Part shown: one piece after another, positions 12,013-64,000 of the stretch
Layout of the letters: the number at the start of each line of letters is the position of its first letter
How positions within the stretch are numbered: position 1 is the first letter of the stretch
Source of the DNA: Candidatus Omnitrophota bacterium
GTDB taxonomy: Bacteria > Omnitrophota > Gorgyraeia > S143-82
Reading direction: 5' to 3'
Assembly (NCBI GenBank): GCA_015494465.1
Contig: WGBD01000001.1
Location: forward strand, 244,477-308,476
Length of the DNA: 64,000 nt
Program-made: the position numbers and the translations under genes
The notes under the pieces: generated by a model
What the model was told of the DNA's origin: nothing
The model's database searches: none
What the model saw: the letters and a program-made list of their open reading frames with translations, nothing else

Positions 12013-12047
12013 ACATTATACCACATAACCAATTACTCACCTAATCG
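12013..12047 (-). promoter_or_regulatory. extended -10 promoter (TGGTATAAT) upstream of fliF
   Basis: The minus strand reads TGGTATAAT (complement of 12015-12023) in the 68-bp fliM(1)-fliF gap, about 50 nt upstream of the fliF ATG. The SD is CAGGGGGGTAAAGG. Confidence 0.45.
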
Positions 12048-16341: not shown

Positions 16342-18156
16342 ATGGCAACCGGCACGGATGTAGACATAATCGTGGTAGGCGGAGGCCACGCGGGGATAGA
16401 GGCCTGCCTCGCCTGTGCCCGGATGGGATTGGAGACCCTCCTTATAACCCACTCTTTGGACAAGATAGGCGAGATGTCCTGTAACCCCTCCATAGGGGGG
16501 ATAGGCAAGGGACAACTCGTGCGGGAGATAGACGCCCTCGGCGGGGAGATGGCCCGGGCGATAGACGAGACCGGGATACAGTTTCGCATCCTGAACAAGA
16601 GGAAAGGACCCGCAGTACAGGCCCGGCGGGCGCAGGCGGACCGGTTCAGGTACCGCGATTACATGAAACACCGCCTGCTCAATACCGAAAACCTGTTCGT
16701 CTGGCAGGCAGAGGTCACGCGCCTGCTCATCAAGGACAATCGGGTGACGGGGGTTGAGGACTCCTACGGGAGGAAGTTTACCGCTAAGGCGGTGATACTC
16801 GCCACCGGCACATTCATGCACGGGCTCATACACATCGGACCAACCCAGATCCCCGGAGGCAGGCTCACCGATCCCGCCAGTCAGGAACTCCCCGAGCAAC
16901 TGAAGACCTTAGGCCTCAGGATAGAGAGGTTCAAGACCGGCACCTGCCCCCGCTTGGATGCCCGGAGCATAAACTACGAGAGGATGCAAGTCCAATACGG
17001 GGAGGAGCCCGTCCCCTACTTCTCGTTCTACAGCGAAAAAGGCCCTATAGAGCAGGTGCCCTGCTACCTGACCTACACCACCCCAGAGACGCACCGGATA
17101 ATCCAGTCCGCCTTGCCCTTTTCTCCCCTCTACACCGGGGTGATAAAGGCAAGAGGCGTTCGCTACTGCCCCTCCATAGAGGACAAGATAGTGCGCTTTC
17201 CCCATCACGAACGGCACTACATATTCGTAGAGCCCGAAGGGCGACAGACCACCGAGGTCTATCCCAACGGAACCTCCAATTCTCTTCCACTGGAGTTTCA
17301 GGAGAAGATGATACGCTCCATCCCCGGGCTGGAGGAGGCCAAGATACTCAAACCCGGTTACGGCATAGAGCACGACTACATAGACCCCCGCCAGCTCTAT
17401 CCGAGCCTTGAGACCCGCCTCGTAGAGAACCTCTTTACCGCAGGCCAGATAAACGGGACCACCGGCTACGAGGAGGCTGCCTGTCAGGGACTCATCGCCG
17501 GGATAAATGCAACCCTAAAGGTCAGGGGCAAACCGCCCCTCATCTTGCGCAGGGACCAGGCCTACATAGGCGTCCTGATAGACGACCTCACCCGCAAAGG
17601 CACCGACGAGCCCTACCGTATGCTCTCCTCCCGGGTGGAACACAGACTCGCCCTGAGGGAGGACAATGCAGACCTGCGCCTGATGGAGATAGGCTATCAG
17701 TTAGGACTGATAAGTGAAGAGAGGATCCAAAAGAAGCGCGAGAAAGAGAAGGAGATTTCAAGGATTCGGGTGTTCTTTCAGACCCACCGCCTCAACGACG
17801 GTAACACCGTAGAGAAGGCCCTCTCCCAGCCCGGCGTATGGCTAAAGGACCTCTTCCCCGAACCCGAGAAGACGCTAAACTTTGACCCCGAGGCCCTGCG
17901 GGTGGCAGAGGTGGAGGCAAAGTACGCGGGATTCATAGAGCGGGCAAGGCGACAGGCAGAGCGGATCCACCAACTGGACAGGGTAAAGATACCTCCGGAG
18001 ATGGACTACGACGCCATCCCTTCACTGCCCAGAGAGGCCCGGGAGAAACTGAAACAGAGGAGACCCCAGACACTGGGCGAGGCCTACGACATACCCGGGA
18101 TAGGGCTGGACACGATAAACCTGTTGTGGACCCTGATAAAACGAAAGGAGGCCTGA
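16342..18156 (+). CDS. mnmG: tRNA uridine 5-carboxymethylaminomethyl modification enzyme MnmG (GidA)
   Basis: 604 aa. It has the FAD-binding IIVVGGGHAGIEAC and the NPSIGGIGKGQLVREIDALGG, GPRYCPSIEDK and FTAGQINGTTGYEEAA motifs. It is too long for TrmFO. Confidence 0.9.
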   Translation: MATGTDVDIIVVGGGHAGIEACLACARMGLETLLITHSLDKIGEMSCNPSIGGIGKGQLVREIDALGGEMARAIDETGIQFRILNKRKGPAVQARRAQADRFRYRDYMKHRLLNTENLFVWQAEVTRLLIKDNRVTGVEDSYGRKFTAKAVILATGTFMHGLIHIGPTQIPGGRLTDPASQELPEQLKTLGLRIERFKTGTCPRLDARSINYERMQVQYGEEPVPYFSFYSEKGPIEQVPCYLTYTTPETHRIIQSALPFSPLYTGVIKARGVRYCPSIEDKIVRFPHHERHYIFVEPEGRQTTEVYPNGTSNSLPLEFQEKMIRSIPGLEEAKILKPGYGIEHDYIDPRQLYPSLETRLVENLFTAGQINGTTGYEEAACQGLIAGINATLKVRGKPPLILRRDQAYIGVLIDDLTRKGTDEPYRMLSSRVEHRLALREDNADLRLMEIGYQLGLISEERIQKKREKEKEISRIRVFFQTHRLNDGNTVEKALSQPGVWLKDLFPEPEKTLNFDPEALRVAEVEAKYAGFIERARRQAERIHQLDRVKIPPEMDYDAIPSLPREAREKLKQRRPQTLGEAYDIPGIGLDTINLLWTLIKRKEA

Positions 18157-19725: not shown

Positions 19726-20478
19726 TTAAAAGCTACTCGCCAAAGACTTCACCAGCAGGTTCCAGCCGTCCGCCAGCACGAACAACAGCAGTTTAAACGG
19801 AAGAGATATCATTATCGGCGGGACCATCATCATACCCATTGCCATCAATACGCTGGCCACGACCAGATCTATTACCAAAAACGGGACATACAACAAGAAG
19901 CCTATGGTGAACGCAGTGCGCAGTTCGCTTATCACGAACGCGGGGATCAAGACAGACATCGGGACATCTATTCTCCTCGACGGCACAGGCGTGTGTGATA
20001 TCTGAAAGAACAGGGCCAGATCCTTGTTCCGGGTCTGTTTCAACATAAATTTCTTGAAGGGGAGCTGTATGCGTCTGCCTGCCTCGTAAATGGTTATCTC
20101 GCCGTTCATGTACGGTTTTACCGCCGTGGACATTGCCTCCCTCCAGACTGGGGCCATTATCATAGCGGTCATGAACAGGGCCAGACCCACGAATATCTGG
20201 GTGGGTGGCAACTGCTGGGTACCGAGGGCGTGGCGCAAAAAGGCAAAGACGACGATTATCCTGGTAAAGGAGGTCATCATCAACACGATCGACGGAGCCA
20301 AGGACAAGACGGTGAAGAGCAAGAACAACTGTACGGTAAAACTGACCTCTTCCTGGGTCTGGGCAGGTTGCACGAAGGTAAACTTCGGCACCCACCACGA
20401 GGGTGTAGCGGAGTACCCCAGGTTAGCACCTAACAACAGGCCAAAAGCCACCACCAAGGCCTTCGTATTAAGCCTCAT
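19726..20478 (-). CDS. fliP: flagellar biosynthetic protein FliP
   Basis: 250 aa. Signal peptide, then FTRIIVVFAFLRHALGTQQLPPTQIFVGLALFMTAMIMAPV and ISELRTAFTIGFLLYVPFLVIDLVVASVLMAMGMMMVPP. Confidence 0.9.
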   Translation of the reverse strand: MRLNTKALVVAFGLLLGANLGYSATPSWWVPKFTFVQPAQTQEEVSFTVQLFLLFTVLSLAPSIVLMMTSFTRIIVVFAFLRHALGTQQLPPTQIFVGLALFMTAMIMAPVWREAMSTAVKPYMNGEITIYEAGRRIQLPFKKFMLKQTRNKDLALFFQISHTPVPSRRIDVPMSVLIPAFVISELRTAFTIGFLLYVPFLVIDLVVASVLMAMGMMMVPPIMISLPFKLLLFVLADGWNLLVKSLASSF

Positions 20479-23337: not shown

Positions 23338-24126
23338 TCATATACTGGAATAATCTGGGGTCCTGCCGATGATCACGATCTCTATCCTTCGGTTTCTGGC
23401 CCTGTGCTCCGGGGTGTCGTTAGGCACGACCGGCTTCAGGTCCCCCAGACCTGCCACCCCTATCCTCTCAACCGGCATGCCGTTGTCGATGAGGAAGTGA
23501 GCCACCGCCAAGGCTCGGTGAAGTGAGAGGTCAAAGTTGTCCTTATAGGGTCCTCCCCACTTCACGGGGATGTTATCCGTGTGTCCCTCTACCACTATGG
23601 GGTTGTCGACATAAAGCAGTAAGGGCAAGATCTTCTTCAGCACCCGCTTGGCCTCTTCGCTGAGCTGGGTAGAACCCTTCTCAAAGAGGATCTCGTTGTG
23701 TATCCTGATGGAGTATCCTCTCTGTACTTTAGTGATCTCGATGTACTTGTAGATCCCCTGACTCTTTACATAGCCCTTCAGGTTCATCAACTTCTTCACT
23801 ACCGCAGACTGCTCCCGGAAGGTCAAGGCCCTACGGTTCCTCACCAATACGGTGACGATCCGCTCGAGCTTCTCAAGCCCAGTGCCCCTACCTGAGAACC
23901 CCGCTCCTCCGAAGCGCAAGGAAACAGAACCGATAAATCCACCTACCTTTAACTCGTCAAATGAGGTGAAAGAGACGAGCATCACGAAAAAGGTGAGCAA
24001 AAGGGACATCGCGTCGCCAAAGGTGAGCATCCAAAAAGGACAGGTCGGCCCCTCGTCTTCCTCTACCTCTTCTTCTTTCTTCTTGCGCTTATCAGCCATC
24101 TCCCCCCACCAGATGGCAGTGCCCAC
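23338..24126 (-). CDS. motB: flagellar motor protein MotB
   Basis: 262 aa. CPFWMLTFGDAMSLLLTFFVMLVS is the MotB TM/plug region. The C-terminal OmpA domain is GHTDNIPV...LSLHRALAVAHFLIDNGMPVERIGVAGLGD...NRRIEIVI. Confidence 0.85.
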   Translation of the reverse strand: MGTAIWWGEMADKRKKKEEEVEEDEGPTCPFWMLTFGDAMSLLLTFFVMLVSFTSFDELKVGGFIGSVSLRFGGAGFSGRGTGLEKLERIVTVLVRNRRALTFREQSAVVKKLMNLKGYVKSQGIYKYIEITKVQRGYSIRIHNEILFEKGSTQLSEEAKRVLKKILPLLLYVDNPIVVEGHTDNIPVKWGGPYKDNFDLSLHRALAVAHFLIDNGMPVERIGVAGLGDLKPVVPNDTPEHRARNRRIEIVIIGRTPDYSSI

Positions 24127-28419: not shown

Positions 28420-31400
28420 CTATTCCAAGATTATACCACCCGGTTGGTTCCAGTTGGCCCTGATCTGGCTTACCAACTGTTCCATCCTCTCCAGCACATC
28501 TTTACTGCCCAACTTCTCCAAAATACTGGTAACCTCGTCTCGATAGCTCCCTAAGCGGAGGTCCAGGTCCAACATACCCCCGAGGAGGTCCAGCTCTTGC
28601 TCGGAGAAGGCCTCCTCCGTCACCTTCGACGCCAGATCCCGGAGTTCCTCTCTCAGCTGGGTCAACTCCTCTTCGGAGATTGGCTCATCTACCTTGTGGA
28701 GTAGAAGGAGGTATCCCTTCTCAGGATGTCTTAATAGGCTCACCACCCGATATCCCTGGAGAACTGCGGAGTGCACTGCTTCCAAAAGCTCGTCTTTCTC
28801 CAACCATTGGGGATTTTCTATTTCATACACATTCCCCCTCCACATAAGTGACCTTGGCCCTTCTTGCCAAGTATACACTTCCCTCGAGAAGACCTCTGTA
28901 TATCGCTTCATCACTGCGGAATCCTTAACCGAATCAAACTCTTTAGTCACAACATCCAGCACATAGGGATCGAATGGACGGGGAAGGATCAGCCTCTCGC
29001 CGAAAAGGAAGGCAAAGACCTCTCCTTTCGAATCGGAGATTACGCGCAACTCTTCATCAGATCTCGGCTCGCCGGTGGATCCCTTCGCAAAGTCCTCCAT
29101 AATCGTCTTCCAATTCGCTGACACCTCACCTACGACTCGTTCTATGTCCTCCTCCTTATCTGCGAGATCAAACCAGATCCCCAATTCCTTGCTCTTCATA
29201 GAGATCGCTGGGTCGAAGATGTGCTCTCGAGCCAACTCCCCAATTGGACCAACCACATCCCGGAAGCGTATCCACTTCACGAAAAACCTCTTGATGCGCT
29301 CACTCCACTCGACATCGTCCTCAGAAACACCGCCCTTAGGGAGGAGGGACACGAGTCCGTGTATAGCAGAGAGTCGGTAGAGGAAGTAATCCCCGACATC
29401 CCTTAAGATTATCGAGTCCTTCTCTTTGTCTATGGCCCGCGGGGTTTGGGCCCCGCTCTTCCCCTCATATCGGGCTATGCGCATAATTAGAGGAAAGAGT
29501 TTGTCTCTCCACATCTTATCCGCCCTTTGTCTATCTCCCTCTCGCACCGCCTTAGAAAACTCTCCGCAAAGACGATAAAAGCCGGTTCTGCGGAACTTCT
29601 TTACAAACCCGCCCTTTTTAACTGCCTCCTCGTCGGAATACTCGTCCAAAAGCTCTCTTACCTCATCGAAAAGCTCATCTACATCCCCGGAGGTCTTCCT
29701 TAGCTTCCGCTTCACTATCCCTCCGAGGGGCGCATAAAGGATACCTAATAAGCGGGAGAGAGACCTGTCTACCTCATCGTTCAACTCCCTAGGCAGAAAG
29801 ACCCACACCGCATCCGAGATCGCAGTGGCCCTTACCGCCTTGTCTACCTGCAAAGCCAGCCGTCTATCCCTTATCCTTGACCGGATCATCCAAGTGGGCA
29901 GGCGTCGGTCCAACGGGACCAACAGGTCCTTGGCCAGGGTCAGGATACGATACTCTTCCCGAGTTGGGGAGTTGTAGAAGAGATAGCGCAGGAACATCCT
30001 CTTGCTAGGATGGGCTCGGGCTATGTCGTATTCGCCCCTCGCTATTCCCTTACTCCTGAGGGCCTTCATCATCAGGGCCTCGTCTTGTCTCAACAAGGCA
30101 ACCATGGCCAACAAGACCGGGTATTCTGGTCCCAACGGCCCCCCTAGGGCCCGGAATCTTACTACCGGGAAGACCTCCCGACGATTGTGAAACCTCTGGT
30201 TCGTCCTTTCCACGAACCTGTCTTCGAATCCCTCGGGGAGCCAATCGTTGGAATATACCGCAAACCTCACCCGAGGAGCACCAAACCTGTCCAATCCCAC
30301 TGGCCACTTATTCGTCCAGATAAGACCCTTCCTTTCCTCTAAGGCCTTGCCAAACTTGTCGTAGCCCTCCTTTATGGCAAAGGCGAAGATCTCCTGGAGC
30401 GGATAGTTGAGCCCCCTTTCCGCCATGTAGGCCTGAGCGGAGACCACCGGAAAGACCCAGAAGGGATTAGACATGTACCGAATAAATCGCTGAGTTAACT
30501 CCTTCATCCCGAACTGCCGGAACAGATAAACGCGCATCTCTTTATCAAAGAGCTTGCTCACATCTCCCTTGCGCCTGTATCTCCAGGCATTAACACACAC
30601 CCGATCTACGGTATCCAACACCTTTTTCACATCCCCTGGCAGGTAGTCTCGGTTGAGTCTGTAGACCATCTGGCGCAACAGGTTCATACCTAGCCTATAA
30701 TCCACCGACCCTGCATAACCTCCTAACTCGCGCAATTCCTCCTCGGGAAGCAGGGCCATTAAACGAATGAAGGCCTCGAACAACCTTCCTCTCAACCCCT
30801 CCACCTCTTCGGAATCGATCGCTTGACTCGCCAGGAGTTCCGCAAGCCGACTCACATCGGAGAGAAACTCTCGTTTCAACTGAATCGGATCAACGGTTTT
30901 CTCCGTCTTTACCACTTCTCCACCCAGAGCAGGTTCTTCCTCTTGAAGCATAACGACCTCATCTTGAGGTTGTTTGCCCTCCCGCTCTGCCAAGGGATTC
31001 ATCATCCGGGAGAGTTTCATCAATCCTCCCGTCCCCAAGGCACTGAGTCCTCCGTAAATCGCTAAACGCCTCAAAAAGGCCCTCCTGCTCATACCATCCT
31101 CTCCCAAACTCCACAACGACTTTGGATCCCACCTGGGATAGACTAAGGACAACTTCCCTTTTATCAAAGATAGCTTGAGCTCCCCCAAGACATCAGAGAT
31201 CCGATCCGGATCAAAGAGCCCCCCCAAGACCGACTCAAAAAAGCCAAGCACATCTAGATTTCGTGCGTCCAATATGTTCGTATCCTCTAATTTCTTAAGA
31301 GACCTTTGGAAGAGAGGACCAAAGGTCATACCTCCCTGAAAGACTTCTTTCTCCAACAACCTGTTCAACAGGTACTGCTCCAAGCTGTGGACCAAGATAG

Positions 31401-33771
31401 GCCTGTTTTCCCCCAGTATGGTAAGGGGAAAGAGCCTCCCCAACAGTCTGCTCCACTCCTGGAGGCCATCGCTCCCCAACACCCTCTCCACCACCGCCAA
31501 GCCCCCGACATCTGCCAGAAACTCACTAATCAAGGCGGAGAAGACATCCCGGGTGAGATCGCCTGGCTCTAGACTGGGGACCTTCTCTTCCAAGAGCCCG
31601 TACACCAGGTTGTGGGTTATCTCGTGGGCCAAGATAGAGCCCACCAAAAGGGAAACATTCGATCGGGCAAAGAGGACCATATTCAAAGGGTGGAAGGCAT
31701 AACTCGCATCGCCGAAGAACCCCCCTCCCCGGATCACCGTCCTTGCGAACAATATCTTTTCCAGCATCCACCTTTTAAGATCGTCCTTCTCCTCTTGTCC
31801 AGAGAGGGAGACCACCGTAGGGGTAAGTAAGGTCAAGACGGTCTTGATCTTCTGCTCCAGCAGGCGAGGATCCGCACAGGAAGAGAGCACCTCCTTCACA
31901 AAGTCCTTATCCTGGGCCCAGTGTAAGAACTCATCCCAAACTTCTCTGAGATAGCTGTTATCTCTAAAAGCGAGGTAAAGACCAGCCCTCATCCTCACCT
32001 CCCGGGGAAGGGTCTCGTCTGAGAAAAGACTCTCCAGTAACTTATTCGGTATGGACCTCTGTACGAGGAAGTCCAACAAGGCGGTAGCGTAAAACGGATC
32101 GTCCTGCCAGTAATAAATCCGATTAATGGCAGAGACCAGATTCCCAAGCTCGTTCCACAGGAGATACCGAACTTGCTTCCTCCCTGATTTACCCTCGGGA
32201 ACAGAGGTCCAAAGGTAGATCAAGGTCTTTAGGGAGATCTCCTGCAGATAGGGGAGAATACCTTCCAATCTATCCAGAAAGGCATCTGACTTTGCCATCG
32301 TCTCTAAGAGTATCGGATTCTGGGAGGAAAGACTTTCCAAAAAACTAGCTAGTCTATTCGGAGGACAACTAGAACCCAAGATCGAGGCTATATCGTTGAG
32401 GTAATCCTGGAGCCAGGGATGGTCTATAAACAGGTCTGCGTCCCCTAGGAACTCCACAAACGAGTTCCATTGCTCTTCGTCGAGATCAACTCTCCCGCTC
32501 TCTACGAGTCTTCCCAATTGATAAAAGCCCTTTGCCCTGTCGGACAAAGAATCGAACTCCAAGGGAGAACCGGTCAAACCTGCGATGAACAGGGCTATGT
32601 CCTCTCCCATACCCAAACGAGCGATCTTCCCGACATGTTCCTTCCCCAACCTGATCTCCAAAACCTCGTCTATCGATCGCTTGGTCAGGTACATCCTTAG
32701 GGCAAGGAGCGATAGATAGATATCCTCGTGCCGGTTATTCCTAAACACATCTATCGCGGAGTCCAACAGCTCCCGGGAGTGAACGGGGAATTGAGAGTAG
32801 AACAAGCGGAAAAAATCTACCGTGGGATTGTACCTTCTATTCCGCACTACAGTGGGGTTGCGGGAGATAAAAAACCAGTTCAAGATCAACGGTTCTAAGA
32901 GGTCCGGGCGCTGGGCTAGTTCCATAAGCCCCTGCGCAAACCAGACCTCATCCCGCCTCCATATCCGCTCAAGCATCTCCCGCACGTCCTCTATCCCCAT
33001 CTTGTCCATGCCCATCCCCAGATCCGAGAGCAGGACATACATCTTTTCCCCAGGAGTAAGGTCTGGATCTGACACTACGCGACCGTAAATCCGGGAAATC
33101 CTGCTGGCAAAGTCCTCGACCTCGACCGCGTGGTAGGCATCCGCCCCTATGTTTAACGGGGGAAGCTCTATGCCCCCGACTATTCCCTCCTCGGAGAACA
33201 GGTCCCGATGGTACAGGGAAAGGATCCAATCTGTCCCCTCAGGGTAGGCCCTGCCAGGGTATCCCCTTCTCAACAACCCGATCTTTCCGGCCCAGTCCCT
33301 ACCTCGATAGAACCAATAGACTGCCCTCCGCAAGGGGTAAAACTCTTGCGATTCGTTGACTATACTTGCCAACTCGGGAACGAATTCTTGGATTCCTTCC
33401 GCGCCCTCTGCCTTCACCTCAAAGCGCACCTCAGGGAATACCGCCTCCGGGACCAACCACAGCCTGAATACAGAATCCTCATCCGATCCGAAACCCGAGA
33501 CCAGTTCCTTGGCAATCTCTTTTAGGCGGTAATCGTAGTAAAGGAGGAAAGCGGTCATCTCAGGGAAGGCTATCTGCCCTGAGGAGAGCTCTTCCCTCTT
33601 CGCAAACGGCGAGAGATTAACCCAGGCCTCTCCGCTAAGAACTCCCGACCAGAAGGCAACCGAATCGTAGGGATAGAGCTCAACGACCTCAGGGCGGGCC
33701 TGGGGTAAAGGAAAAGTAAAAAACAAACAAATCGCTAAAAAGGTGTTAAGCCATCTCGTCTTTCTTCCCAT
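28420..33771 (-). CDS. giant secreted protein of unknown function with an HExxH...ExxxD metallopeptidase-like motif
   Basis: Uninterrupted 1783-codon frame. Signal peptide MGRKTRWLNTFLAICLFFTFPLPQA. ILAHEITHNLVYG...SEFLAD lies around aa 700. An internal Tat-like hydrophobic segment (SRRAFLRRLAIYGGLSALGTGG) lies around aa 880. Confidence 0.6.
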   Translation of the reverse strand: MGRKTRWLNTFLAICLFFTFPLPQARPEVVELYPYDSVAFWSGVLSGEAWVNLSPFAKREELSSGQIAFPEMTAFLLYYDYRLKEIAKELVSGFGSDEDSVFRLWLVPEAVFPEVRFEVKAEGAEGIQEFVPELASIVNESQEFYPLRRAVYWFYRGRDWAGKIGLLRRGYPGRAYPEGTDWILSLYHRDLFSEEGIVGGIELPPLNIGADAYHAVEVEDFASRISRIYGRVVSDPDLTPGEKMYVLLSDLGMGMDKMGIEDVREMLERIWRRDEVWFAQGLMELAQRPDLLEPLILNWFFISRNPTVVRNRRYNPTVDFFRLFYSQFPVHSRELLDSAIDVFRNNRHEDIYLSLLALRMYLTKRSIDEVLEIRLGKEHVGKIARLGMGEDIALFIAGLTGSPLEFDSLSDRAKGFYQLGRLVESGRVDLDEEQWNSFVEFLGDADLFIDHPWLQDYLNDIASILGSSCPPNRLASFLESLSSQNPILLETMAKSDAFLDRLEGILPYLQEISLKTLIYLWTSVPEGKSGRKQVRYLLWNELGNLVSAINRIYYWQDDPFYATALLDFLVQRSIPNKLLESLFSDETLPREVRMRAGLYLAFRDNSYLREVWDEFLHWAQDKDFVKEVLSSCADPRLLEQKIKTVLTLLTPTVVSLSGQEEKDDLKRWMLEKILFARTVIRGGGFFGDASYAFHPLNMVLFARSNVSLLVGSILAHEITHNLVYGLLEEKVPSLEPGDLTRDVFSALISEFLADVGGLAVVERVLGSDGLQEWSRLLGRLFPLTILGENRPILVHSLEQYLLNRLLEKEVFQGGMTFGPLFQRSLKKLEDTNILDARNLDVLGFFESVLGGLFDPDRISDVLGELKLSLIKGKLSLVYPRWDPKSLWSLGEDGMSRRAFLRRLAIYGGLSALGTGGLMKLSRMMNPLAEREGKQPQDEVVMLQEEEPALGGEVVKTEKTVDPIQLKREFLSDVSRLAELLASQAIDSEEVEGLRGRLFEAFIRLMALLPEEELRELGGYAGSVDYRLGMNLLRQMVYRLNRDYLPGDVKKVLDTVDRVCVNAWRYRRKGDVSKLFDKEMRVYLFRQFGMKELTQRFIRYMSNPFWVFPVVSAQAYMAERGLNYPLQEIFAFAIKEGYDKFGKALEERKGLIWTNKWPVGLDRFGAPRVRFAVYSNDWLPEGFEDRFVERTNQRFHNRREVFPVVRFRALGGPLGPEYPVLLAMVALLRQDEALMMKALRSKGIARGEYDIARAHPSKRMFLRYLFYNSPTREEYRILTLAKDLLVPLDRRLPTWMIRSRIRDRRLALQVDKAVRATAISDAVWVFLPRELNDEVDRSLSRLLGILYAPLGGIVKRKLRKTSGDVDELFDEVRELLDEYSDEEAVKKGGFVKKFRRTGFYRLCGEFSKAVREGDRQRADKMWRDKLFPLIMRIARYEGKSGAQTPRAIDKEKDSIILRDVGDYFLYRLSAIHGLVSLLPKGGVSEDDVEWSERIKRFFVKWIRFRDVVGPIGELAREHIFDPAISMKSKELGIWFDLADKEEDIERVVGEVSANWKTIMEDFAKGSTGEPRSDEELRVISDSKGEVFAFLFGERLILPRPFDPYVLDVVTKEFDSVKDSAVMKRYTEVFSREVYTWQEGPRSLMWRGNVYEIENPQWLEKDELLEAVHSAVLQGYRVVSLLRHPEKGYLLLLHKVDEPISEEELTQLREELRDLASKVTEEAFSEQELDLLGGMLDLDLRLGSYRDEVTSILEKLGSKDVLERMEQLVSQIRANWNQPGGIILE

Positions 33772-39854: not shown

Positions 39855-42731
39855 TTACCACCTAAACCTGCTCCGCCAAACCCTTTCTAGATTCTTCACA
39901 TCCTCAACGATGTACTCCTCTCCCTCCAGGCCGTACACGACGAAGCTCTTGCCCTCGCTGGTCCTACCCACCAGCTCACAAGGGAGGCCCTCGAACAGTT
40001 TCTCGAACCTGCCTTTGTGCTTACGATCTATCTCGACCAAAAACCTGCTCTGGCTCTCACTGTAGAACACCACCTCATTGCTTCTACGATCCCCCTCGAA
40101 TGGGACATTGTTCAGAAACAGCTCCGCTCCTATACCCCCTCCTATGCACATCTCCGCCAAGGCCACCCCGATTCCCCCATCGGAGATGTCGTGGCAGGCC
40201 AAGACGATCCCTTCCCTAACCGCCAAGTGCAATCTCTTGTACAACTCCCTGGCCAAGGACACATCCGTACGAGGAACCGAATTGCCAAGCACTCCAAACA
40301 GATTTAGAAATGCGCTTCCTCCCAATTCGTCCCTCGTGAGGCCTACCACATATAGGAGCGTATCTCTCCGCTTTAAGTAAGGAGAGACCACCTTGGAGAT
40401 GTCGTCTATCATTCCCATTCCCGATATAAGGAGAGTCCCTGGAATAGGGATGCTCTCGTTTCCTTTTAGGAACTCGTTGTAAAGGCTGTCCTTGCCCGAT
40501 ATAAACGGTACCCCGAAGCCCAGGGCAAAGTCGTAACAGCCCTTGCTGGCCCGAACGAGTCCTCCCAACCTGTCTGGTTTGTCGGGGTTGCCCCAGCAGA
40601 AGTTATCCAGGATAGAGATCCTATCGGGGTTCCCTCCCACAGCTACTATCTGTCTTATTGCCTCGTCTATACACGCCCCAGCCATCCAATAGGGATCTAT
40701 CCTTCCGTACCAGGGGTTGATCCCACAGCCGAGGGCTATACCTTTCTTGCTGTGTAGGTGTCCGCGTATAACTGCGGAATCGCTTGGGGCGACCTGGCGC
40801 GGTCCGCACAACGGCTTTAATGCCGACCTACCCTGCACCTCGTGGTCGTACTGCCTTATCACCCACTCCTTAGAGGCGATGTTGTAGGAAGAAAGGACTT
40901 GACGGAATGTCTTACTCGGATCCTCTACATCTGGGACGGGCTCTTCTTTCTTCACCCAAGTCCAGACTGCCAACTTCTCTTCCAAAGGTAATCCCCCGTG
41001 GAGGAAGTCCACATCCATCTCCATCACCAGGGCCCCATCGTAGTAAAGGCGCAAGCGACGATCCCCGGTAAACTCCCCTATACAAGTCGCCAGGACATCT
41101 TCTTCGGCAAAGGCGGAGACGACATCCTCCAGGTATTCAGGCTTGACAGCCAAGACCATCCTCTCCTGTGATTCGGAGATCCATATCTCGGTATAGCTCA
41201 GTCCTGAATACTTCAGTGGAACCTTCTCCAGATAGACCACCGCTCCGACATCCCTAGCCATCTCCCCAACTGCAGAGGACAGGCCTCCAGCTCCACAGTC
41301 GGTGATGGCCCTGTACCATCCTTTATCCCTTATCTTCAGCAGGACATCCGCGAACTTCTTCTCTTCGATCGGATTGCCTATCTGTACCGCAGAGGCACAG
41401 CTGTACTGGGACTCCTCGGTCAACTCCGCGGAGGAGAATGTGGCACCGTGGATACCGTCTCGTCCAGTCCTCCCCCCGATCAGGACTATCTTATCCCCTG
41501 GGCGGATCTCCTTCTCTACCGCACCCTTCGGCATAAGCCCCACGGTCCCGCAGTAAACTAGGGGATTGGCACAAAAGTCCGGATCAAAGAAGATCGCACC
41601 GTTGACCGTGGGGATGCCCATCTTGTTCCCATAATCTCTGACCCCTGCCACCACCTCCCGCATCATCCTCCGGGGATGGATAACCCCCTCTGGTACTTCC
41701 TTGGTGTCAGGGGGAGCGAAACAAAACACATCGGTATTAGCGATCGGCTTGGCCCCCAAGCCACATCCGAGCACATCCCTTATCACCCCTCCCAGTCCGG
41801 TGTTGGCGCCACCGAACGGCTCCAGGGCAGAGGGATGATTGTGCGTCTCTACCTTAAAGCACACCGCCCAGTCCGAATCGAACTCTACTACCCCGGCGTT
41901 GTCCTTGAATACCGAAAGGCACCAAGGCTTGTCGAGTTCCTTGGTTGCCTTCATTATGTAGTCCTTAAACAGAGAAGAGATCCTCTCTTCCGTTACGACA
42001 TCTCCTTCCTCCGAGACCTCCCTGTACAATATCGGACTCTTAAAGGTCTTGTGTTGGCAGTGCTCAGACCAGGTCTGGGCTATGGTCTCCAACTCCACAT
42101 CGGTAGGATTTCTCCCCAACTTGCGATAATGTTCCTGAACTGCCTTCATCTCCCTCAGGTTCAAAGAGAGCATCCAATCCTTGCTGATCTGGAGGAGTTC
42201 CTCATCGCCTTTCTCTAGGAGTTCCACCTCCCTGAGGCTAAACTCGTACCCTGGGGACCTCTGGTGAAAAGGATGGAGAAAATCGTTTATGACCCCTATC
42301 TGGATGAGCGGATTGTAGAGCTGGGAAAGAACCGCATTGAGGACACCCTTATCCAAGGGAGGAAACTCGTAGCGCACGCCGGTAAAGACCGCCACGGGAT
42401 CCTGGCGAAAGAACTCCCTAAAGGCCCGGGAGATGGTGATCGCCTCGGGATCCATCACCCCAGGGAGATAACCGATCTCGACCCAGCTCCCTTCGATAAC
42501 GGGAGGGCTATCGTCCGGATAGATGAAGACGCTCTCTACGACGGGATCGAGCAAGACCTTCTCCGCAAAGGCCTCTAGCTCCTCGAGGGAAGGGCCTGCC
42601 TCCAAAAAGACCAGCCTCACTCGCCTTACCGAATCTATCCCTTCGACCCCGAATCCCTTCAAATAGGAAACGATCTCCCGGCTGGCCGGGGAGCCAGGAT
42701 CTCTATGAATCACATGAACACGGATTCGCAT
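39855..42731 (-). CDS. purL: phosphoribosylformylglycinamidine synthase PurL with N-terminal PurS-like domain(s)
   Basis: 958 aa. About 200 N-terminal residues are PurS-like (PGVMDPEAITISRAF). A PurL/AIR-synthase-related core follows (FKVETHNHPSALEPFGGANTGLGGVIRD). Confidence 0.85.
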   Translation of the reverse strand: MRIRVHVIHRDPGSPASREIVSYLKGFGVEGIDSVRRVRLVFLEAGPSLEELEAFAEKVLLDPVVESVFIYPDDSPPVIEGSWVEIGYLPGVMDPEAITISRAFREFFRQDPVAVFTGVRYEFPPLDKGVLNAVLSQLYNPLIQIGVINDFLHPFHQRSPGYEFSLREVELLEKGDEELLQISKDWMLSLNLREMKAVQEHYRKLGRNPTDVELETIAQTWSEHCQHKTFKSPILYREVSEEGDVVTEERISSLFKDYIMKATKELDKPWCLSVFKDNAGVVEFDSDWAVCFKVETHNHPSALEPFGGANTGLGGVIRDVLGCGLGAKPIANTDVFCFAPPDTKEVPEGVIHPRRMMREVVAGVRDYGNKMGIPTVNGAIFFDPDFCANPLVYCGTVGLMPKGAVEKEIRPGDKIVLIGGRTGRDGIHGATFSSAELTEESQYSCASAVQIGNPIEEKKFADVLLKIRDKGWYRAITDCGAGGLSSAVGEMARDVGAVVYLEKVPLKYSGLSYTEIWISESQERMVLAVKPEYLEDVVSAFAEEDVLATCIGEFTGDRRLRLYYDGALVMEMDVDFLHGGLPLEEKLAVWTWVKKEEPVPDVEDPSKTFRQVLSSYNIASKEWVIRQYDHEVQGRSALKPLCGPRQVAPSDSAVIRGHLHSKKGIALGCGINPWYGRIDPYWMAGACIDEAIRQIVAVGGNPDRISILDNFCWGNPDKPDRLGGLVRASKGCYDFALGFGVPFISGKDSLYNEFLKGNESIPIPGTLLISGMGMIDDISKVVSPYLKRRDTLLYVVGLTRDELGGSAFLNLFGVLGNSVPRTDVSLARELYKRLHLAVREGIVLACHDISDGGIGVALAEMCIGGGIGAELFLNNVPFEGDRRSNEVVFYSESQSRFLVEIDRKHKGRFEKLFEGLPCELVGRTSEGKSFVVYGLEGEEYIVEDVKNLERVWRSRFRW

Positions 42732-44010
42732 TGCCTAGTTCCAGACCGCACATCACCCGTTCTGAAGGAAAAGGTATTATATCACGGGCAGGATCCCATT
42801 CAAGCACATAACCCCACAACACCTCTGGCTGGCACGGGTCTTCGCAGTGATCCCCTTTTTGCAGGAGCAAGACCTTTCCCTCTTGCTGTAGTGCCCTCAA
42901 CTCGTAGAATCTTGCCTTATCCCAGGAGAGGACCCGGACCTGGGGATCCCAATAATAGTGGTATCTCAACAGCCACAGATCGCTCCCCATTGCTAAGATC
43001 ACCTTCGGGCGAATAGTCCCCAACTTGGCCAGGAAGATTCGGTTGTATCCCAAGGTCTGTTGAGAAAGCATCTCTGCACTGACCTGAGCGGTCGTAAGAA
43101 ATACCGCCAGCCACAAGGCCACGACGACGGACCTTCGAAGCCAACCCCGCATCCCTTCCCAGATCCGCACCTGGACCTCTATCAACGAGTTAAAGAGTAG
43201 GCCTGCCATGACCATCAAGACGGGTGGCAGGCCAAGACCGACCCCAAAGCACAGGGCCAACGAGAGCCCTATACCTGCCACTGCCAACAAAGGCACCCAG
43301 ACCTTTCTGTCCAAGACGCCCAACCACAATCCACCCAACCCAAGGAAGCCCAAGATGACGGTCTCCAGAGGCAGAGGCCCACTACCACCACCCAAAGGCC
43401 CCAGCGCTCTGAGGACCAGAAAGGCCAGGCCCAACCAAAGCAACGACAAGTACAAGACCTGAGACCTCCGCCTATCAGACAAGCGCACCCGGTGAGCCCA
43501 GAGGAAGAAAAAAGCCGGGAGAAGCGCACCGGCAACCAGGGGATGGAGGATCGTCGCCAACAGCAAGATCCCCACCCCCCAAGCGGTATTTACGAGCACA
43601 CCGGCCCGGGACATCAACTGTGCACCGAGGAGATACAAGCCCAGCAAGAACCAAGCCAATGTCCACCCAAAACCCGAGGAGACGAGGACGAGAAGGATAG
43701 GGGCGCTGAACACCAGCTGAAGGGAAAGGAAGAGCGGAGTAACCGATCTGATCCCCTTCCTGAGGGCCGTCTCGAGGAAGAAGAAGGCACCCAGCAAGAA
43801 AAGGCAAATCTCTACCAGGAGGAGAAAGGCGGGTTCCTGACTCCCTGGGGCCCCGGTCCCTCCAAACCACGAGAACAACCACTTAAGGCCGTAGAGCCAA
43901 TTGGCAAACAGATCCTGCGGTATCCCCGGAAGATCCAGGGACTGGCCTGCGCACAACTCCCGCAGGCCCAATGCCACCGCCACTGTATCCGGCCGGAGAT
44001 AAAACGGCAT
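42703..44010 (-). CDS. polytopic membrane protein of unknown function embedded in the pur operon
   Basis: 435 aa with about 10 predicted TM helices and a soluble Cys-rich C-terminal domain. No recognisable family. Confidence 0.45.
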   Translation of the reverse strand: MPFYLRPDTVAVALGLRELCAGQSLDLPGIPQDLFANWLYGLKWLFSWFGGTGAPGSQEPAFLLLVEICLFLLGAFFFLETALRKGIRSVTPLFLSLQLVFSAPILLVLVSSGFGWTLAWFLLGLYLLGAQLMSRAGVLVNTAWGVGILLLATILHPLVAGALLPAFFFLWAHRVRLSDRRRSQVLYLSLLWLGLAFLVLRALGPLGGGSGPLPLETVILGFLGLGGLWLGVLDRKVWVPLLAVAGIGLSLALCFGVGLGLPPVLMVMAGLLFNSLIEVQVRIWEGMRGWLRRSVVVALWLAVFLTTAQVSAEMLSQQTLGYNRIFLAKLGTIRPKVILAMGSDLWLLRYHYYWDPQVRVLSWDKARFYELRALQQEGKVLLLQKGDHCEDPCQPEVLWGYVLEWDPARDIIPFPSERVMCGLELGNANPCSCDS

Positions 44011-59942: not shown

Positions 59943-60719
59943 CTATCCCGTTACGAACCTAAACCACAAGCCAAAGTGATTGAACAACAGGACCCTTGAG
60001 ACCCCGGCGAACAGAGGGGTCATAGCAAACAGGACCAATATCCCCACCAGTATCTGAACCGGTATCCCCACGATAAAGATGTTCATCTGGGGGATCAATC
60101 GGGTGATGAGCCCCAAGGATATCATCACGAACAACAGGGTAAACATAATAGGTGCCCCCAGTTGGGCGCTGACCAGAAACAGATTCCCCACCAGTATAGA
60201 CAGATCCCCCACCTTCTCCGGGGACAAGAAAGAGCCCAACGAGATCGGCAGATGGACGAAACTGTCCCTTAGACCCTTCAGAAGAAGAAGGTGCATATCC
60301 GAGAGGAAGAAGACTACCATAGCGGTCCAAAAGAGGATACCGCTCACCACTGATTGGCGGTTTGCACTCACCGGATCAAACACATTGGCAATCGCCAATC
60401 CCATCTGATAACCCGCTATCTGCCCGGCCAACTGGACCGCAAAAAACACCAAAGAGGCAAGGAAACCCATAGCCAAACCTACCAACAACTCACAACCACC
60501 CCAGAAGATAAGACCCGCAACCGTCTGGGGAACGCCTCCTGCCAACCTCAGCGAAGGGAATATCGCCACGCTGAACACCAAGGCGAGCATAAACCTTATC
60601 TGCACCGGGACATTCCTGTCCCCCAAAAACGGGGCACTGAACACGAACCCGGTGATGCGCAGAAGGACCAGCAAGAAAAAGAATGCCTGCTTGAGCGAGT
60701 AATTGAGGATATCAAACAT
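59943..60719 (-). CDS. fliR: flagellar biosynthesis protein FliR
   Basis: 258 aa polytopic membrane protein. It lies between fliQ and flhB. Confidence 0.85.
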   Translation of the reverse strand: MFDILNYSLKQAFFFLLVLLRITGFVFSAPFLGDRNVPVQIRFMLALVFSVAIFPSLRLAGGVPQTVAGLIFWGGCELLVGLAMGFLASLVFFAVQLAGQIAGYQMGLAIANVFDPVSANRQSVVSGILFWTAMVVFFLSDMHLLLLKGLRDSFVHLPISLGSFLSPEKVGDLSILVGNLFLVSAQLGAPIMFTLLFVMISLGLITRLIPQMNIFIVGIPVQILVGILVLFAMTPLFAGVSRVLLFNHFGLWFRFVTG

Positions 60720-60984
60720 TCACCACTTCCGGTATAAGAGAGAACACACTCACCGTAAACCCGACGATGATGTTCAGGAACCACGGGAGCAACAGGGCAA
60801 CCAAGAGCATCACCGCCAGTATCTTCGGCACGAAGGTAAGGGTCATCTCGTGTATCTGGGTAACCGCCTGAAATATGCTCACCAAGAGTCCCACCACCAG
60901 ACTACCCAAGAGAAGGGGCCCGGCAATCATAAACCCCACCCACAATCCTTTGCGCAAGACCTCTACCGCCAGATCCGGCCCCAT
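60712..60984 (-). CDS. fliQ: flagellar biosynthesis protein FliQ
   Basis: 90 aa. LWVGFMIAGPLLLGSLVVGLLVSIFQAVTQIHEMTLTFVPKI is FliQ-like. Confidence 0.85.
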   Translation of the reverse strand: MGPDLAVEVLRKGLWVGFMIAGPLLLGSLVVGLLVSIFQAVTQIHEMTLTFVPKILAVMLLVALLLPWFLNIIVGFTVSVFSLIPEVVNV

Positions 60985-60997
60985 CTTCTTCGCCCCT

Positions 60998-62905
60998 TCA
61001 ATTTATCTCCAACTCCAGTTCCACGTCCTTATCCAAGGCCAACTTCTCCTCTTCCAACAGGAGTTGAGATATCGCATCTGCACAGGAATAGACCCTCCTG
61101 CCCTTGTGCCACCCCACTGAAGAGCAGTTTATCTGCTGTAGGGCCTCTATAACCACCTTCCGGGGCGCCCCTGCAGAGAAGAGCAGGGACAAGGTCTTCC
61201 CCAAGGCCTCCAGATGGGAGGCCACACACCCCCCTGCCTTCTCCAGACGCAGGAGGACCTCTCTGACCTTCCCGTCACCATCCTGATTTATTGTGACCAA
61301 AAGGGGTCCGCAGGCGGTCTGCACCTTTACCGTCCGCCCCAACAGGACCTCCGGCCTCTTGGACATACCAGTCCAGTCCAAGCGATCGCCTGCCAACGAG
61401 ACCTCCCGCGGAGAAGATTCTCCAACCCCGGAGACGAGCTGCCCCTGTCCCTTCTCCGAGGCCATGGGGAGGGCCAAAACGCCCGCCCCGCCAAACAGGG
61501 AGGCCTTCCACAGGGAATTAGCGAAATCCTTCCCTTCTACCCGCACCCCTTCCACTATACCGTCCCAGTACTCCTGAAACCTTGCCTGATGGCGCAGTTT
61601 CCAATCCTCGGGCACATCCCCATACACCACGAATACCGTCTTCACGTCGTCGGGCACGAACTCTGCGGACTGCAAGGAGCCCTCTCTCAAGAGGAGTTCC
61701 TTAAATTCCTCGGAGAAGAAGTTCCTCTGGCGGGCAATCTCGTCCAGACAGGGGATAACTCCTCCCTCTTCCGTCAGGGTCCGTCGGGGCATAATCCGGG
61801 CCCCACCAGTCAGGACCGAGACATTCCTCCGCTTCAATCCCTCCTTCTCCAACCAACTAAACCGATAGGCAGGGAACACACCCCTTTCTTTAGCCAATTC
61901 CCAAGATGCAGTGTCGGTCTTCTCTTTGAGGAACCTGGCCACCTTTGCACCCAATTCCACCGCCGAATCTGAGGCATAAGACAGGCCCAAGGAGAACAAC
62001 AACTCCGACCAGCCCGCAACTGCCACCGAAACCCGCCTCAACCTGCGGGTAACCTCGTAGACCTCCCTCATCGGGAAATTACACAGGTCTATAAGATCAT
62101 CCGCTAGACGGACCGCGTGGACGACCCTATCTCCCAACCTCTCCCAATCCACCTCCCGAATACGCCCTTTCGCCCTGACGAACCGGTTGAGATTTATAAT
62201 CACCGTGGGGACTGCCTCTCCCGGGCTTAAGAGGTATCCGTCGTCGGAGACCACCCGCCGGTGCCCCAGGCCCGGCACCTCCTCAGTACGAATCGCATCC
62301 TCCAGTACAAATCTCACCAAGGCACCTCTTGCCCGAACCGCGTTTATAAGTCCCACCATCTCCTCCGCAGAGACCTCCGTCCTGCTGGTGAGGTCCTCTC
62401 CCGCCAGTTCTATCTGTCCCCTTTCCCGCAAGGAGGACAAAGCCTGCATAGAGACGAAGACATTCAGGCAGAGGAAATCCAGTTCCTCGAAGTGAGACGC
62501 CACTCGCAACAACTTCAGAGTGGAGGAGGAATTCATGGCCACCGACAAACCTATACGGTTCCAATCCAAGATAGTGGCCTTGAGGAGCATCAGGAACGAC
62601 CTCCACTCCGCCCGAGAGAAGGCCACCGAAGACAGATCCACCCCCGGATGCAACTTCCACCGCTTAAACCGCACGATGGACTTCATCAGGTCGTAGACCG
62701 AGACGAAATCCCCCGGCGTAGGAAAGGCAATGTGGGAAACCGGCAGTTCCGAGACCTCAACGTGCAGGGCCTGTTCGGGAAGAGACACCTCCTGATTGGA
62801 TATCATCTCCTCCCATATCCCCAACTGGCGCCGGATGTCCACTATACTACGGCCATAACGCTTCTCTACGGACGACAATATCTGGAGAAAGGACTTGAGT
62901 TCCAC
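60998..62905 (-). CDS. ribonucleotide-reductase-like protein with a C-terminal TSCPD domain (divergent class II RNR homolog; catalytic cysteines apparently not conserved)
   Basis: 635 aa with a GTG start. The C-terminal GKVREVLLRLEKAGGCVASHLEALGKTLSLL matches the TSCPD domain. Upstream blocks align loosely to RNR in the right order (VIINLNRF for the CNLGSINL loop, ELAKERGVFPAY, RRNVSVLTGGARIMP, IPCLDE for NPCGE). Confidence 0.4.
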   Translation of the reverse strand: MELKSFLQILSSVEKRYGRSIVDIRRQLGIWEEMISNQEVSLPEQALHVEVSELPVSHIAFPTPGDFVSVYDLMKSIVRFKRWKLHPGVDLSSVAFSRAEWRSFLMLLKATILDWNRIGLSVAMNSSSTLKLLRVASHFEELDFLCLNVFVSMQALSSLRERGQIELAGEDLTSRTEVSAEEMVGLINAVRARGALVRFVLEDAIRTEEVPGLGHRRVVSDDGYLLSPGEAVPTVIINLNRFVRAKGRIREVDWERLGDRVVHAVRLADDLIDLCNFPMREVYEVTRRLRRVSVAVAGWSELLFSLGLSYASDSAVELGAKVARFLKEKTDTASWELAKERGVFPAYRFSWLEKEGLKRRNVSVLTGGARIMPRRTLTEEGGVIPCLDEIARQRNFFSEEFKELLLREGSLQSAEFVPDDVKTVFVVYGDVPEDWKLRHQARFQEYWDGIVEGVRVEGKDFANSLWKASLFGGAGVLALPMASEKGQGQLVSGVGESSPREVSLAGDRLDWTGMSKRPEVLLGRTVKVQTACGPLLVTINQDGDGKVREVLLRLEKAGGCVASHLEALGKTLSLLFSAGAPRKVVIEALQQINCSSVGWHKGRRVYSCADAISQLLLEEEKLALDKDVELELEIN

Positions 62906-62953: not shown

Positions 62954-63604
62954 TTACTTAAACACTTCTCCTGTCGCCCTGTACCAGAAGACAAAGTCCA
63001 ATTCGTCCATCGGGATACGAATCTGGGCGGAGAAGTCCCGCATCCTGGCCTCTATCTCCAGGTATGCTTTCCTACCCAATGCCTTGGGAATGGAGTCAAT
63101 TACCCCCAAGTCCATCAACGACCGCAAGATGTGCCTGTCCAGTATACCTATGTCCCTGCCCAGACCTATGTTCCTCAAGAAGTGGCTGGCCTCCTTGTAG
63201 CCGTAGCCCTTTATCTCCTTTACCAGGAAGTCCCTCAGGGCCTTTACATCCTCTCCCCGAGAAAAGACTTCGCTAAGCTCGGGCTTATTCCCTCTTACGA
63301 ACCTCCTCTGGGCCAATGCCACATACCTGGCCTTGTTGTTGTGGAACCGCACCCCGGAAAGGTGCCGGGCTATTTCCTCCTCCTTACCCCCCAACAACAA
63401 ACCGCACCTCTCCAGTTCTTCTACCGCAGACCATCCCGCCTTCGCCTTGGATTGAGGGGTGAGGAGACAAAAGACCAACTCCTTAAAGGCCCGATAATGA
63501 TCCTTTCCCTCCCATATTGAGCGGAACTCCTCCAAACGATCCCTTAGGTGCCGACGAATCCCCCGATGGATGGAGACTATGTCTTTAATCCTTCCCTCGT
63601 TCAT
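62954..63604 (-). CDS. ogg: Ogg2-type 8-oxoguanine DNA glycosylase / N-glycosylase-DNA lyase
   Basis: The likely start is MNEGRIKD at 63602-63604; the 99-codon upstream extension in the track is G/R-rich and overlaps uvrC. The HhH-GPD-like C-terminus has the conserved Lys (GYKEASHFLRNIG) and Asp (ILDRHI). Confidence 0.55.
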   Translation of the reverse strand: MNEGRIKDIVSIHRGIRRHLRDRLEEFRSIWEGKDHYRAFKELVFCLLTPQSKAKAGWSAVEELERCGLLLGGKEEEIARHLSGVRFHNNKARYVALAQRRFVRGNKPELSEVFSRGEDVKALRDFLVKEIKGYGYKEASHFLRNIGLGRDIGILDRHILRSLMDLGVIDSIPKALGRKAYLEIEARMRDFSAQIRIPMDELDFVFWYRATGEVFK

Positions 63605-64000
63605 CGTCTCTTCGGTATCAGGCCCTTGTGCCTCAACTTGCGGTGATAGGTTATCGCAAATCTGTGGGCCTCGTCGCGCACCGCCTGGAGGAGACGCAAC
63701 CCAGCCGATTCCCTCGGCAGGACAATCGCCCCTCTCCTGCCGGGCAGGTACACCTCCTCCCTCTCCTTCGCCAATGCGACCACATAGATGTCCAGATTGG
63801 TCTCCATCAAGGCCTTCAGTGCCGACTTCAACTGGGCAGGTCCACCGTCTATCAGGAACAGATCCGGTGGCGTGAACTCCCCTCGGGCTATACGCACACA
63901 CCTGCGTTTCACCACCTCGTAGATCATCGCCACATCGTTCACCCCCTCCACCGTCTTTATCCGATACCTGCGATAGTTCTTCTTATCCGGACGACCATCC
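63601..64000 (-). CDS. uvrC: excinuclease ABC subunit C (UvrC), C-terminal part; the 5' end lies outside the window
   Basis: LFLIDGGPAQLKSALKAL...VVALAKEREEVYLPG...LQAVRDEAHRFAITYHRK matches the UvrC endonuclease-domain motifs. The stop comes right after HRKLRHKGLIPKRR, with no C-terminal (HhH)2 domain. Confidence 0.75.
   Translation of the reverse strand, partial: DGRPDKKNYRRYRIKTVEGVNDVAMIYEVVKRRCVRIARGEFTPPDLFLIDGGPAQLKSALKALMETNLDIYVVALAKEREEVYLPGRRGAIVLPRESAGLRLLQAVRDEAHRFAITYHRKLRHKGLIPKRR

Follow-up and report, generated by a model that had tools for sequence, protein, structure and literature searches.

The 64,000-nucleotide (nt) stretch analyzed here, hereafter the window, comes from a Candidatus Omnitrophota bacterium (NCBI GenBank assembly GCA_015494465.1, contig WGBD01000001.1, positions 244,477 to 308,476), and carries near one end a gene for a protein of 635 amino acids (aa) that resembles a ribonucleotide reductase (RNR). 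Comparative analysis revealed that this protein is a dead paralogue of the class II reductase NrdJ, restricted to a small Omnitrophota clade and preserved by purifying selection that acts most strongly on its C-terminal TSCPD domain and on a basic N-terminal motif. Judging from its residues, the protein cannot be an RNR, whether or not the genome has another one. We consider it probable that this is a non-catalytic NrdJ paralogue acting through a four-Cys domain, and that its present position beside the flagellar gene fliQ was derived by rearrangement.

The open reading frame (ORF) is intact and lies on the minus strand at 60998-62905, exactly where an earlier note on this DNA had placed it, with a GTG start, a TGA stop and an AGGGGGA Shine-Dalgarno sequence 8 nt 5' of the GTG; public collections hold an identical protein (P0001). 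Pfam recognized the C-terminal TSCPD domain that the same note had read from the letters (PF12637, aa 531-617, 49.8 bits against a gathering cutoff of 22.8), as well as a partial Ribonuc_red_lgC domain (PF02867, aa 237-354, 67 bits). The absence of an ATP cone, also claimed earlier, was upheld by the Pfam scan and by search, and the scan gave no match in the protein to the N-terminal RNR domain PF00317. Moreover, no curated RNR model of NCBIfam reached its cutoff, all of them scoring far below; the best was NF006417, NrdJ (228.2 bits against a cutoff of 961), and TIGR02504 gave 107.5 bits against 399.95, an outcome that holds for both models in all eight members of the family described below.

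The resemblance to RNRs is nevertheless far beyond chance, as seen with both phmmer and Foldseek. The closest solved structure by sequence is the NrdJ of Thermotoga maritima (1xje, phmmer E 1e-14), and T. maritima NrdJ also provided the top Foldseek matches (TM 0.62-0.64, E 1e-23, about 590 columns, 18% identity) to the AlphaFold2 model of the window protein (pLDDT 81.7, pTM 0.71), which shows the ten-stranded alpha/beta barrel of an RNR alpha subunit. Since the structural match spans nearly the whole chain, the N-terminal 230 residues, unseen by Pfam, are also RNR-derived.

The catalytic elements were assessed by aligning the window protein and its relatives, column by column, with 25 canonical NrdJs, in which 119 columns conserved in at least 90% of the sequences were regarded as canonical-invariant. 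The window protein retains only 30 of these columns; another 74 carry substitutions and 15 are deleted. In all canonical NrdJs examined, the motif SACF with the first redox Cys is followed by the TNPCGE finger loop and then by E(S/A)CNLGS with the second redox Cys, as in P0009, where SACF, NPCGE and CNLGS stand at positions 101, 284 and 297. All three Cys residues, together with the Asn and the Glu, are substituted or deleted in the window protein (Table 1). At the finger loop, the sequence reads S220-D221-D222-G223 with a one-residue deletion, the Asn, the thiyl-radical Cys and the Glu all being lost, and the tip is variable across the family, position 222 being occupied by D, N, S, G or E. 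The loss of catalytic residues asserted in the earlier note therefore stands, also after the alignment check that the note had proposed in order to see whether Cys, Asn and Glu might prove conserved. Its mapping of the motifs had to be redrawn. The segment TVIINLNRF (aa 234-242) had been taken for the block of the first redox Cys; it does belong to the CNLGS block, but this block holds the second one. Likewise, VIPCLDE (aa 380-386), proposed as the NxCxE radical loop, was rejected, as it aligns with the canonical VNPYFEEA downstream of the APTG loop, the alignment placing the radical loop at residues 220-223; the Cys of VIPCLDE is found in only the two closest sequences. The class II blocks do not follow each other in the way first described, the canonical order of SACF, NPCGE and CNLGS contradicting that mapping.

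The losses extend to ligand binding. The GGGTG motif is down to one Gly, loop 1 bears a deletion of 10 residues and loop 2 (QGGxRRGA) one of 7 residues, and the substrate phosphate loop TTIAPTGTxS is deleted (about 11 residues), the deletions in these three loops being common to all family members. Furthermore, the SKTxN strand (beta-J, beside the adenosyl pocket) is replaced and shortened, which suggests that adenosylcobalamin binding was lost. The chain ends about 15-25 residues past the TSCPD domain, and the six-Cys zinc finger (CPxC...CxxC...C..C tail), which in real NrdJ bears the re-reducing Cys pair (PMC5704485), is absent. Across the family alignment, aa 1-520 contain no invariant Cys and hence no conserved redox pair; the only invariant Cys residues of the family are C532, C560, C594 and C608, all inside the TSCPD domain. 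Because the barrel holds no conserved Cys, thiyl-radical chemistry is excluded, and the variation of the former active-site positions among members indicates that no new active site evolved there. In this context, the earlier description of an RNR-derived pseudoenzyme is supported beyond its original argument, since loops 1 and 2, the phosphate loop, the SKTxN strand and the tail have also been lost, yet purifying selection persists. The companion suggestion of a nucleotide-binding protein is disfavored, because the elements by which RNRs bind substrate and effector nucleotides are those deleted.

A word-indexed search of 5.8 billion clusters recovered eight 90%-identity clusters, amounting to 14 full-length sequences of 634-647 aa, whose identities to the window protein were 100, 90, 52, 52, 52, 47, 44 and 38%; orthologues keep the same length and architecture down to 38% identity, and beyond the family the scores fall sharply to canonical NrdJs with no more than 31% identity. 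An exhaustive profile search of 1.84 billion representatives clustered at 50% identity recovered just one fragment and three full-length members of the family (972-1095 bits), which amounts to 3-4 clusters at this level; the matches from 470 bits down all bear canonical motifs. NPCGE, CNLGS, APTG and SACF are missing from all family members, and EKRYGRS is present in all of them. The species-representative genomes bearing the family are labeled Candidatus Omnitrophota, with one bin labeled Planctomycetia.

Regarding selection, comparison of the window gene with its 90%-identical orthologue in locus L011 gave an overall ratio of nonsynonymous to synonymous substitution rates (dN/dS) of 0.106. 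By region, the barrel had a ratio of 0.06-0.07, the TSCPD domain one of 0.058 and the intervening linker (aa 481-520) one of 0.50; for comparison, fliQ, flhB and flhA gave 0.02-0.05. Conservation within the family is concentrated in aa 11-39, in aa 254-375 and in the TSCPD domain. The segment at aa 254-346 is the sole part that Pfam recognizes as RNR, and the SVEKRY of the N-terminal motif aligns with LERRYL in the canonical N-terminal helix, from which the motif derives. The TSCPD domain is the best-preserved part of the protein, being 41-44% identical to the TSCPD domains of canonical NrdJs versus 27% for the whole protein. Its invariant residues are C532, C560, H564, C594, C608 and D610, and the four Cys are invariant both in the family and in the aligned canonical domains. 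For TSCPD domains, an IscU-like fold and cluster binding have been proposed, and no role has so far been reported for this domain in class II RNRs (PMC9669993).

The gene stops 13 nt before the fliQ ATG and comes after uvrC and ogg, in agreement with the earlier note. The layout of the fliQ junction is consistent with co-transcription and translational coupling, and co-transcription with fliQRflhBA is probable throughout the clade that shares this arrangement; such co-transcription is not evidence of flagellar function. Promoter-like and terminator-like sites around the gene occurred at chance level in our scan, with none in the fliQ junction. The gene lies directly before fliQ-fliR-flhB-flhA-flhF-flhG in four lineages with 52-100% identity, those of the window, P0002, P0004 and P0005, where the junctions measure +13, +13, -10 and +2 nt; the upstream gene varies in this clade, being ogg, a small ORF or a TreT-type glycosyltransferase gene. 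In the deeper lineages P0006, P0007/P0044 and P0008 (38-47% identity), the same-strand neighbor is gidA/mnmG, which follows the RNR-like gene in two of them, once after a gap of 2 nt, and precedes it in the other. Thus, four of seven lineages adjoin fliQ and three gidA, and the family does not consistently co-occur with the export-gate genes. The flagellar and DNA-repair transcription unit suggested earlier is accurate as local geography; however, the fliQ link belongs to one sub-clade, and ogg and uvrC are neighbors only in the window and in the 90%-identical relative.

The arrangement within the window points to how the two contexts may be related. Its gidA is flanked by a pilin-like gene, a GH57/DUF3536 gene and fliM, and the same order is found downstream of the pair formed by the RNR-like gene and gidA in locus L001. 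The fliL-fliM-fliO-fliP block ends at 19726, about 1.6 kb from gidA, and fliQ lies at 60984, so that it is precisely at the step from fliP to fliQ that the flagellar cluster has been split, with gidA next to one break point and the RNR-like gene next to the other. Most simply, this would reflect a rearrangement in the ancestor of the fliQ clade, with breakpoints between the RNR-like gene and gidA and between fliP and fliQ. In addition, nearly all genes of the window are read in one direction and serve diverse functions (purine synthesis, pabB, asd, signaling and flagella), so tight adjacency is weak evidence of shared function here. Neither a NrdR box nor a cobalamin riboswitch was found above chance level in the window, and the gene does not appear to be regulated like nrd genes; a genuine nrdJ locus elsewhere has nrdR, cobA/btuR, two ndk genes and a dCMP deaminase gene alongside.

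Table 1. Positions in the window of the RNR-like gene, of segments of its product and of the genes discussed in the text.
Feature	Position	Strand	Basis
NrdJ-derived, predicted catalytically dead 635-aa protein	60998..62905	-	ORF; RNR alpha fold; dN/dS 0.106 vs L011 orthologue
Basic N-terminal motif S..EKRYGRSIV.IRRQ...W.EM, family-specific, aa 11-39	62789..62875	-	18 of the first 40 positions invariant in 5 diverse members
PVSH, aa 55-58, site of canonical SACF; Cys replaced by Ser57	62732..62743	-	Comparison with 25 NrdJs
VSDDGY, aa 219-224, remnant of finger loop TNPCGE	62234..62251	-	Alignment
EAVPTVIIN, aa 230-238, site of canonical E(S/A)CNLGSIN; Cys replaced by Val232, Asn by Pro233	62192..62218	-	Alignment
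Best-conserved barrel segment, aa 254-346, helices and strand after beta-F, ending in ELAKERGVFP	61868..62146	-	30 of 93 positions invariant
Linker between barrel and TSCPD, disordered, fast-evolving, aa 483-517	61355..61459	-	pLDDT <50; dN/dS 0.50; 1 of 35 positions invariant
TSCPD (IscU-like) domain, aa 518-620	61046..61354	-	PF12637; dN/dS 0.058; domain model pLDDT 86.7
Junction between RNR-like gene and fliQ, 13 nt	60985..60997	-	AGGGG Shine-Dalgarno overlaps TGA; no terminator
fliQ, first of fliQ-fliR-flhB-flhA-flhF-flhG-pilZ-...-fliA	60712..60984	-	TIGR01402, 98.7 bits, above cutoff
ogg, archaeal-type 8-oxoguanine glycosylase/lyase	62954..63610	-	NF002305, 211.7 bits vs cutoff 183
uvrC 3' end, cut at the window edge	63601..64000	-	PF08459, 122.9 bits; orthologous locus L011
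gidA/mnmG, 43 kb from the RNR-like gene, inverted	16342..18156	+	PF01134, 543.7 bits
fliP, end of the fliL-fliM-fliO-fliP block	19726..20478	-	PF00813, 270.7 bits

Other features of the neighborhood were recorded. All large genes of the 64-kb array lie on the minus strand except gidA, and at 16342-18156 the skews jump to -0.06 (GC) and +0.21 (AT), as opposed to about -0.2 and about 0 in the surroundings, suggesting that this single gene was recently inverted. The mechanically called ogg ORF (62954-63901, 315 aa from a GTG) is over-extended, since homology begins at the ATG at 63610 and the L011 orthologue has 216 aa; as a result, ogg and the end of uvrC have about 10 nt in common. The uvrC orthologue of L011 (8040-9305) encodes 421 aa with GIY-YIG, UvrC_M and RNase H-like domains, versus about 600 aa typically, and no HhH domain was recorded in it. 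Flagellar genes occupy at least three blocks within the window, including two fliM paralogues in separate blocks (12033-12974 and 21294-22169, both with FliM and FliMN_C domains) and two adjacent MotB-like genes (22651-23325 and 23338-24126). Three minus-strand ORFs had no Pfam match: one of 1783 aa between NUDIX hydrolase and Mrp/ParA-type ATPase genes (28420-33771; none at E 0.001 or better), one of 435 aa between purB and purL (42703-44010) and one of 372 aa between fliP and gidA (18385-19503). The PADLOC defense models gave no match.

Concerning other RNRs, no canonical enzyme was found among the 40 large ORFs of the window or in the relatives' loci examined, to which this search was confined; a separate active RNR is expected in the genome because the window encodes de novo purine synthesis (purB, purL, purQ and purF). 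The best canonical matches, P0046 and P0048, come from unrelated Logan runs and not from assemblies bearing the family. P0046 (L018, 6001-10056) is a covalent tandem NrdJ-NrdJ fusion of 1351 aa, both halves of which keep NPCGE, ESCNL and APTG, and only the second half of which carries TSCPD and the zinc finger; its gene stands after nrdR and a separate nrdJ of 720 aa, and before cobA/btuR and two ndk genes. This protein was considered as a half-degenerate tandem NrdJ, which would have offered a precedent for an active/inactive pair, and was rejected in view of the catalytic motifs in both halves. P0048 (L019, 292-5094) has 1600 aa, composed of a NrdJ, a Ham1p-like (ITPase) domain and a second NrdJ with TSCPD, in which NVCGE replaces NPCGE.

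Taken together, we propose that the protein originated in Candidatus Omnitrophota as a paralogue of a dimeric, adenosylcobalamin-dependent class II RNR of the TSCPD-bearing type. The ten-stranded barrel would have been kept as a scaffold, while radical generation, substrate reduction, nucleotide binding and the Cys-pair tail were lost, leaving a putative binding or scaffold protein with the four-Cys domain as its active module. This domain would bind a metal, an iron-sulfur (Fe-S) center or a protein partner, as it presumably does in real NrdJ, and the dead barrel would supply oligomerization and surface. The position upstream of fliQ would be derived, through the two breakpoints described above. 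A more specific version, namely a phylum-restricted pseudo-RNR whose IscU-like four-Cys domain is the working part on the dead barrel, engaging an Fe-S cluster, a metal or a reductase partner, is in our opinion possible but doubtful.

Several observations weigh against this explanation. The analysis yielded no positive evidence for any function of the protein, and that the four Cys would bind a metal or a cluster is suggested by their conservation and, by analogy, by the literature on canonical TSCPD/IscU-like domains (PMC9669993). The comparison of the TSCPD domain with IscU gave no Foldseek match below E 0.001, no profile match and a hhalign probability of 1.8%. Moreover, the spacing between the gene and fliQ is very tight and persists down to 52% identity, and this could be due to more than chance. 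The occurrence of gidA as a neighbor on either side could point to a functional relationship for which our explanation has no place.

Among the alternatives, an unlikely one is that the protein is a partner that regulates or helps to assemble the organism's genuine NrdJ, forming a heterodimer through the alpha-A/alpha-B helices or docking by its TSCPD domain, and modulating activity, oligomerization or reductant delivery, as Rnr4 does for Rnr2. Helix motifs at the canonical dimer interface are invariant in the family (S-V-F/Y-D-L-M-K at aa 68-75; W101, F104 and L107), the TSCPD domain remains close to canonical ones, and in real NrdJ the Cys-rich C-terminal domain mediates oligomerization and inter-subunit electron transfer (PMC5704485). 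However, loop 1, which is located at that dimer interface, is deleted, a canonical nrdJ was not seen in the window or in any relative's locus examined, and the family gene never adjoins nrd, nrdR or cobalamin genes. The gidA neighborhood would fit an accessory factor of tRNA U34 modification working with MnmG (GidA), a role we regard as quite improbable: gidA is the same-strand neighbor in all three non-fliQ lineages, in both orders and once with a gap of only 2 nt, and the conserved Arg/Lys-rich N-terminal motif could bind RNA, but these are only three lineages of one phylum, the fliQ clade has kept the gene although the link was broken there, gidA lying inverted at a distance of 43 kb, and none of the known MnmG partners is RNR-like.

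More improbable still is an accessory protein of flagellar type III export or assembly coupled to FliQ. The gene fills the slot usual for fliP, and its junction with fliQ is tight or overlapping, without a terminator, in four lineages spanning 52-100% identity; nevertheless, fliP is present elsewhere in the window, there is no fliQ link in P0006, P0007 and P0008, which adjoin gidA, the 70-kDa protein is soluble, is homologous to a metabolic enzyme and resembles no flagellar component, and long co-directional arrays of mixed function are the rule in the window. Finally, a still-active RNR with unconventional residues, or a decaying pseudogene, is hardly credible. Domain-based annotation would indeed name the protein NrdJ, but the barrel has no conserved Cys, the substrate-binding loops are deleted and the curated models score far below their cutoffs (228 vs 961 bits); and the pseudogene reading was rejected in view of an ORF that is intact in 14 sequences, a dN/dS of 0.11, a confident fold and orthologues down to 38% identity. 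The explanation of a non-catalytic NrdJ paralogue acting through its four-Cys domain remains the one that we prefer.

These results have consequences for annotation. Domain-based pipelines will label the protein as NrdJ, and reconstructions from Omnitrophota metagenome-assembled genomes may credit these bacteria with a false or a second RNR. The host dependence and nucleotide autonomy of Omnitrophota are under debate. Beyond annotation, a TSCPD domain that is the most constrained part after both catalysis and the zinc finger were lost argues for a TSCPD function separable from nucleotide reduction, and the window protein is a simple system for testing whether this domain binds a metal or a cluster. 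If the more specific version holds, the family would be the first in bacteria for which repurposing of an RNR alpha subunit has been described, and a natural separation-of-function variant, exposing the role of TSCPD independently of nucleotide reduction; our full-text literature searches found no description of an inactive bacterial class II RNR or of this family.

The nearest known system is the dimeric class II NrdJ with a long C-terminus (NF006417/PRK08665; T. maritima 1xje/3o0o), with which the window protein shares the fold, the order of barrel, linker and TSCPD, the four TSCPD Cys and the motifs RRxxxG, GxxY.S, ELAKERGVFP, RN and FQ; it differs from NrdJ in lacking the catalytic and ligand-binding elements, the terminal six-Cys zinc finger and the context of nrdR and cobalamin genes. 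The NrdJb of the split NrdJa+b and stand-alone TSCPD proteins also present the IscU-like/TSCPD module apart from catalysis (PMC5704485, PMC9669993); however, NrdJb has the zinc finger and serves an active NrdJa, whereas the window protein has the module joined to a dead barrel and has no such finger. A curated family of RNR-like proteins not named RNR exists in NF005401 (PRK06948, 'ribonucleotide reductase-like protein'), of which the window protein is not a member (57.2 bits vs a cutoff of 906, with the match limited to aa 237-348).

By analogy, the repurposing proposed here would not be isolated, as repurposed dead RNR subunits are already known elsewhere, and the window protein would be a bacterial, class II addition to the short list of RNR-derived pseudoenzymes. 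The betaherpesvirus R1 homologues M45 of murine cytomegalovirus and UL45 of human cytomegalovirus are inactive RNR large subunits with other roles and, as in the window protein, the RNR alpha scaffold has been kept under selection after catalytic loss; in contrast, they are viral, of class I origin, and gained an N-terminal RHIM extension, whereas the window protein is bacterial, of class II origin, and retained its TSCPD domain. In yeast, Rnr4 is an inactive RNR beta paralogue that supports Rnr2, and would share with the window protein the condition of a dead RNR paralogue in a non-catalytic supporting role, although it differs in subunit and fold.

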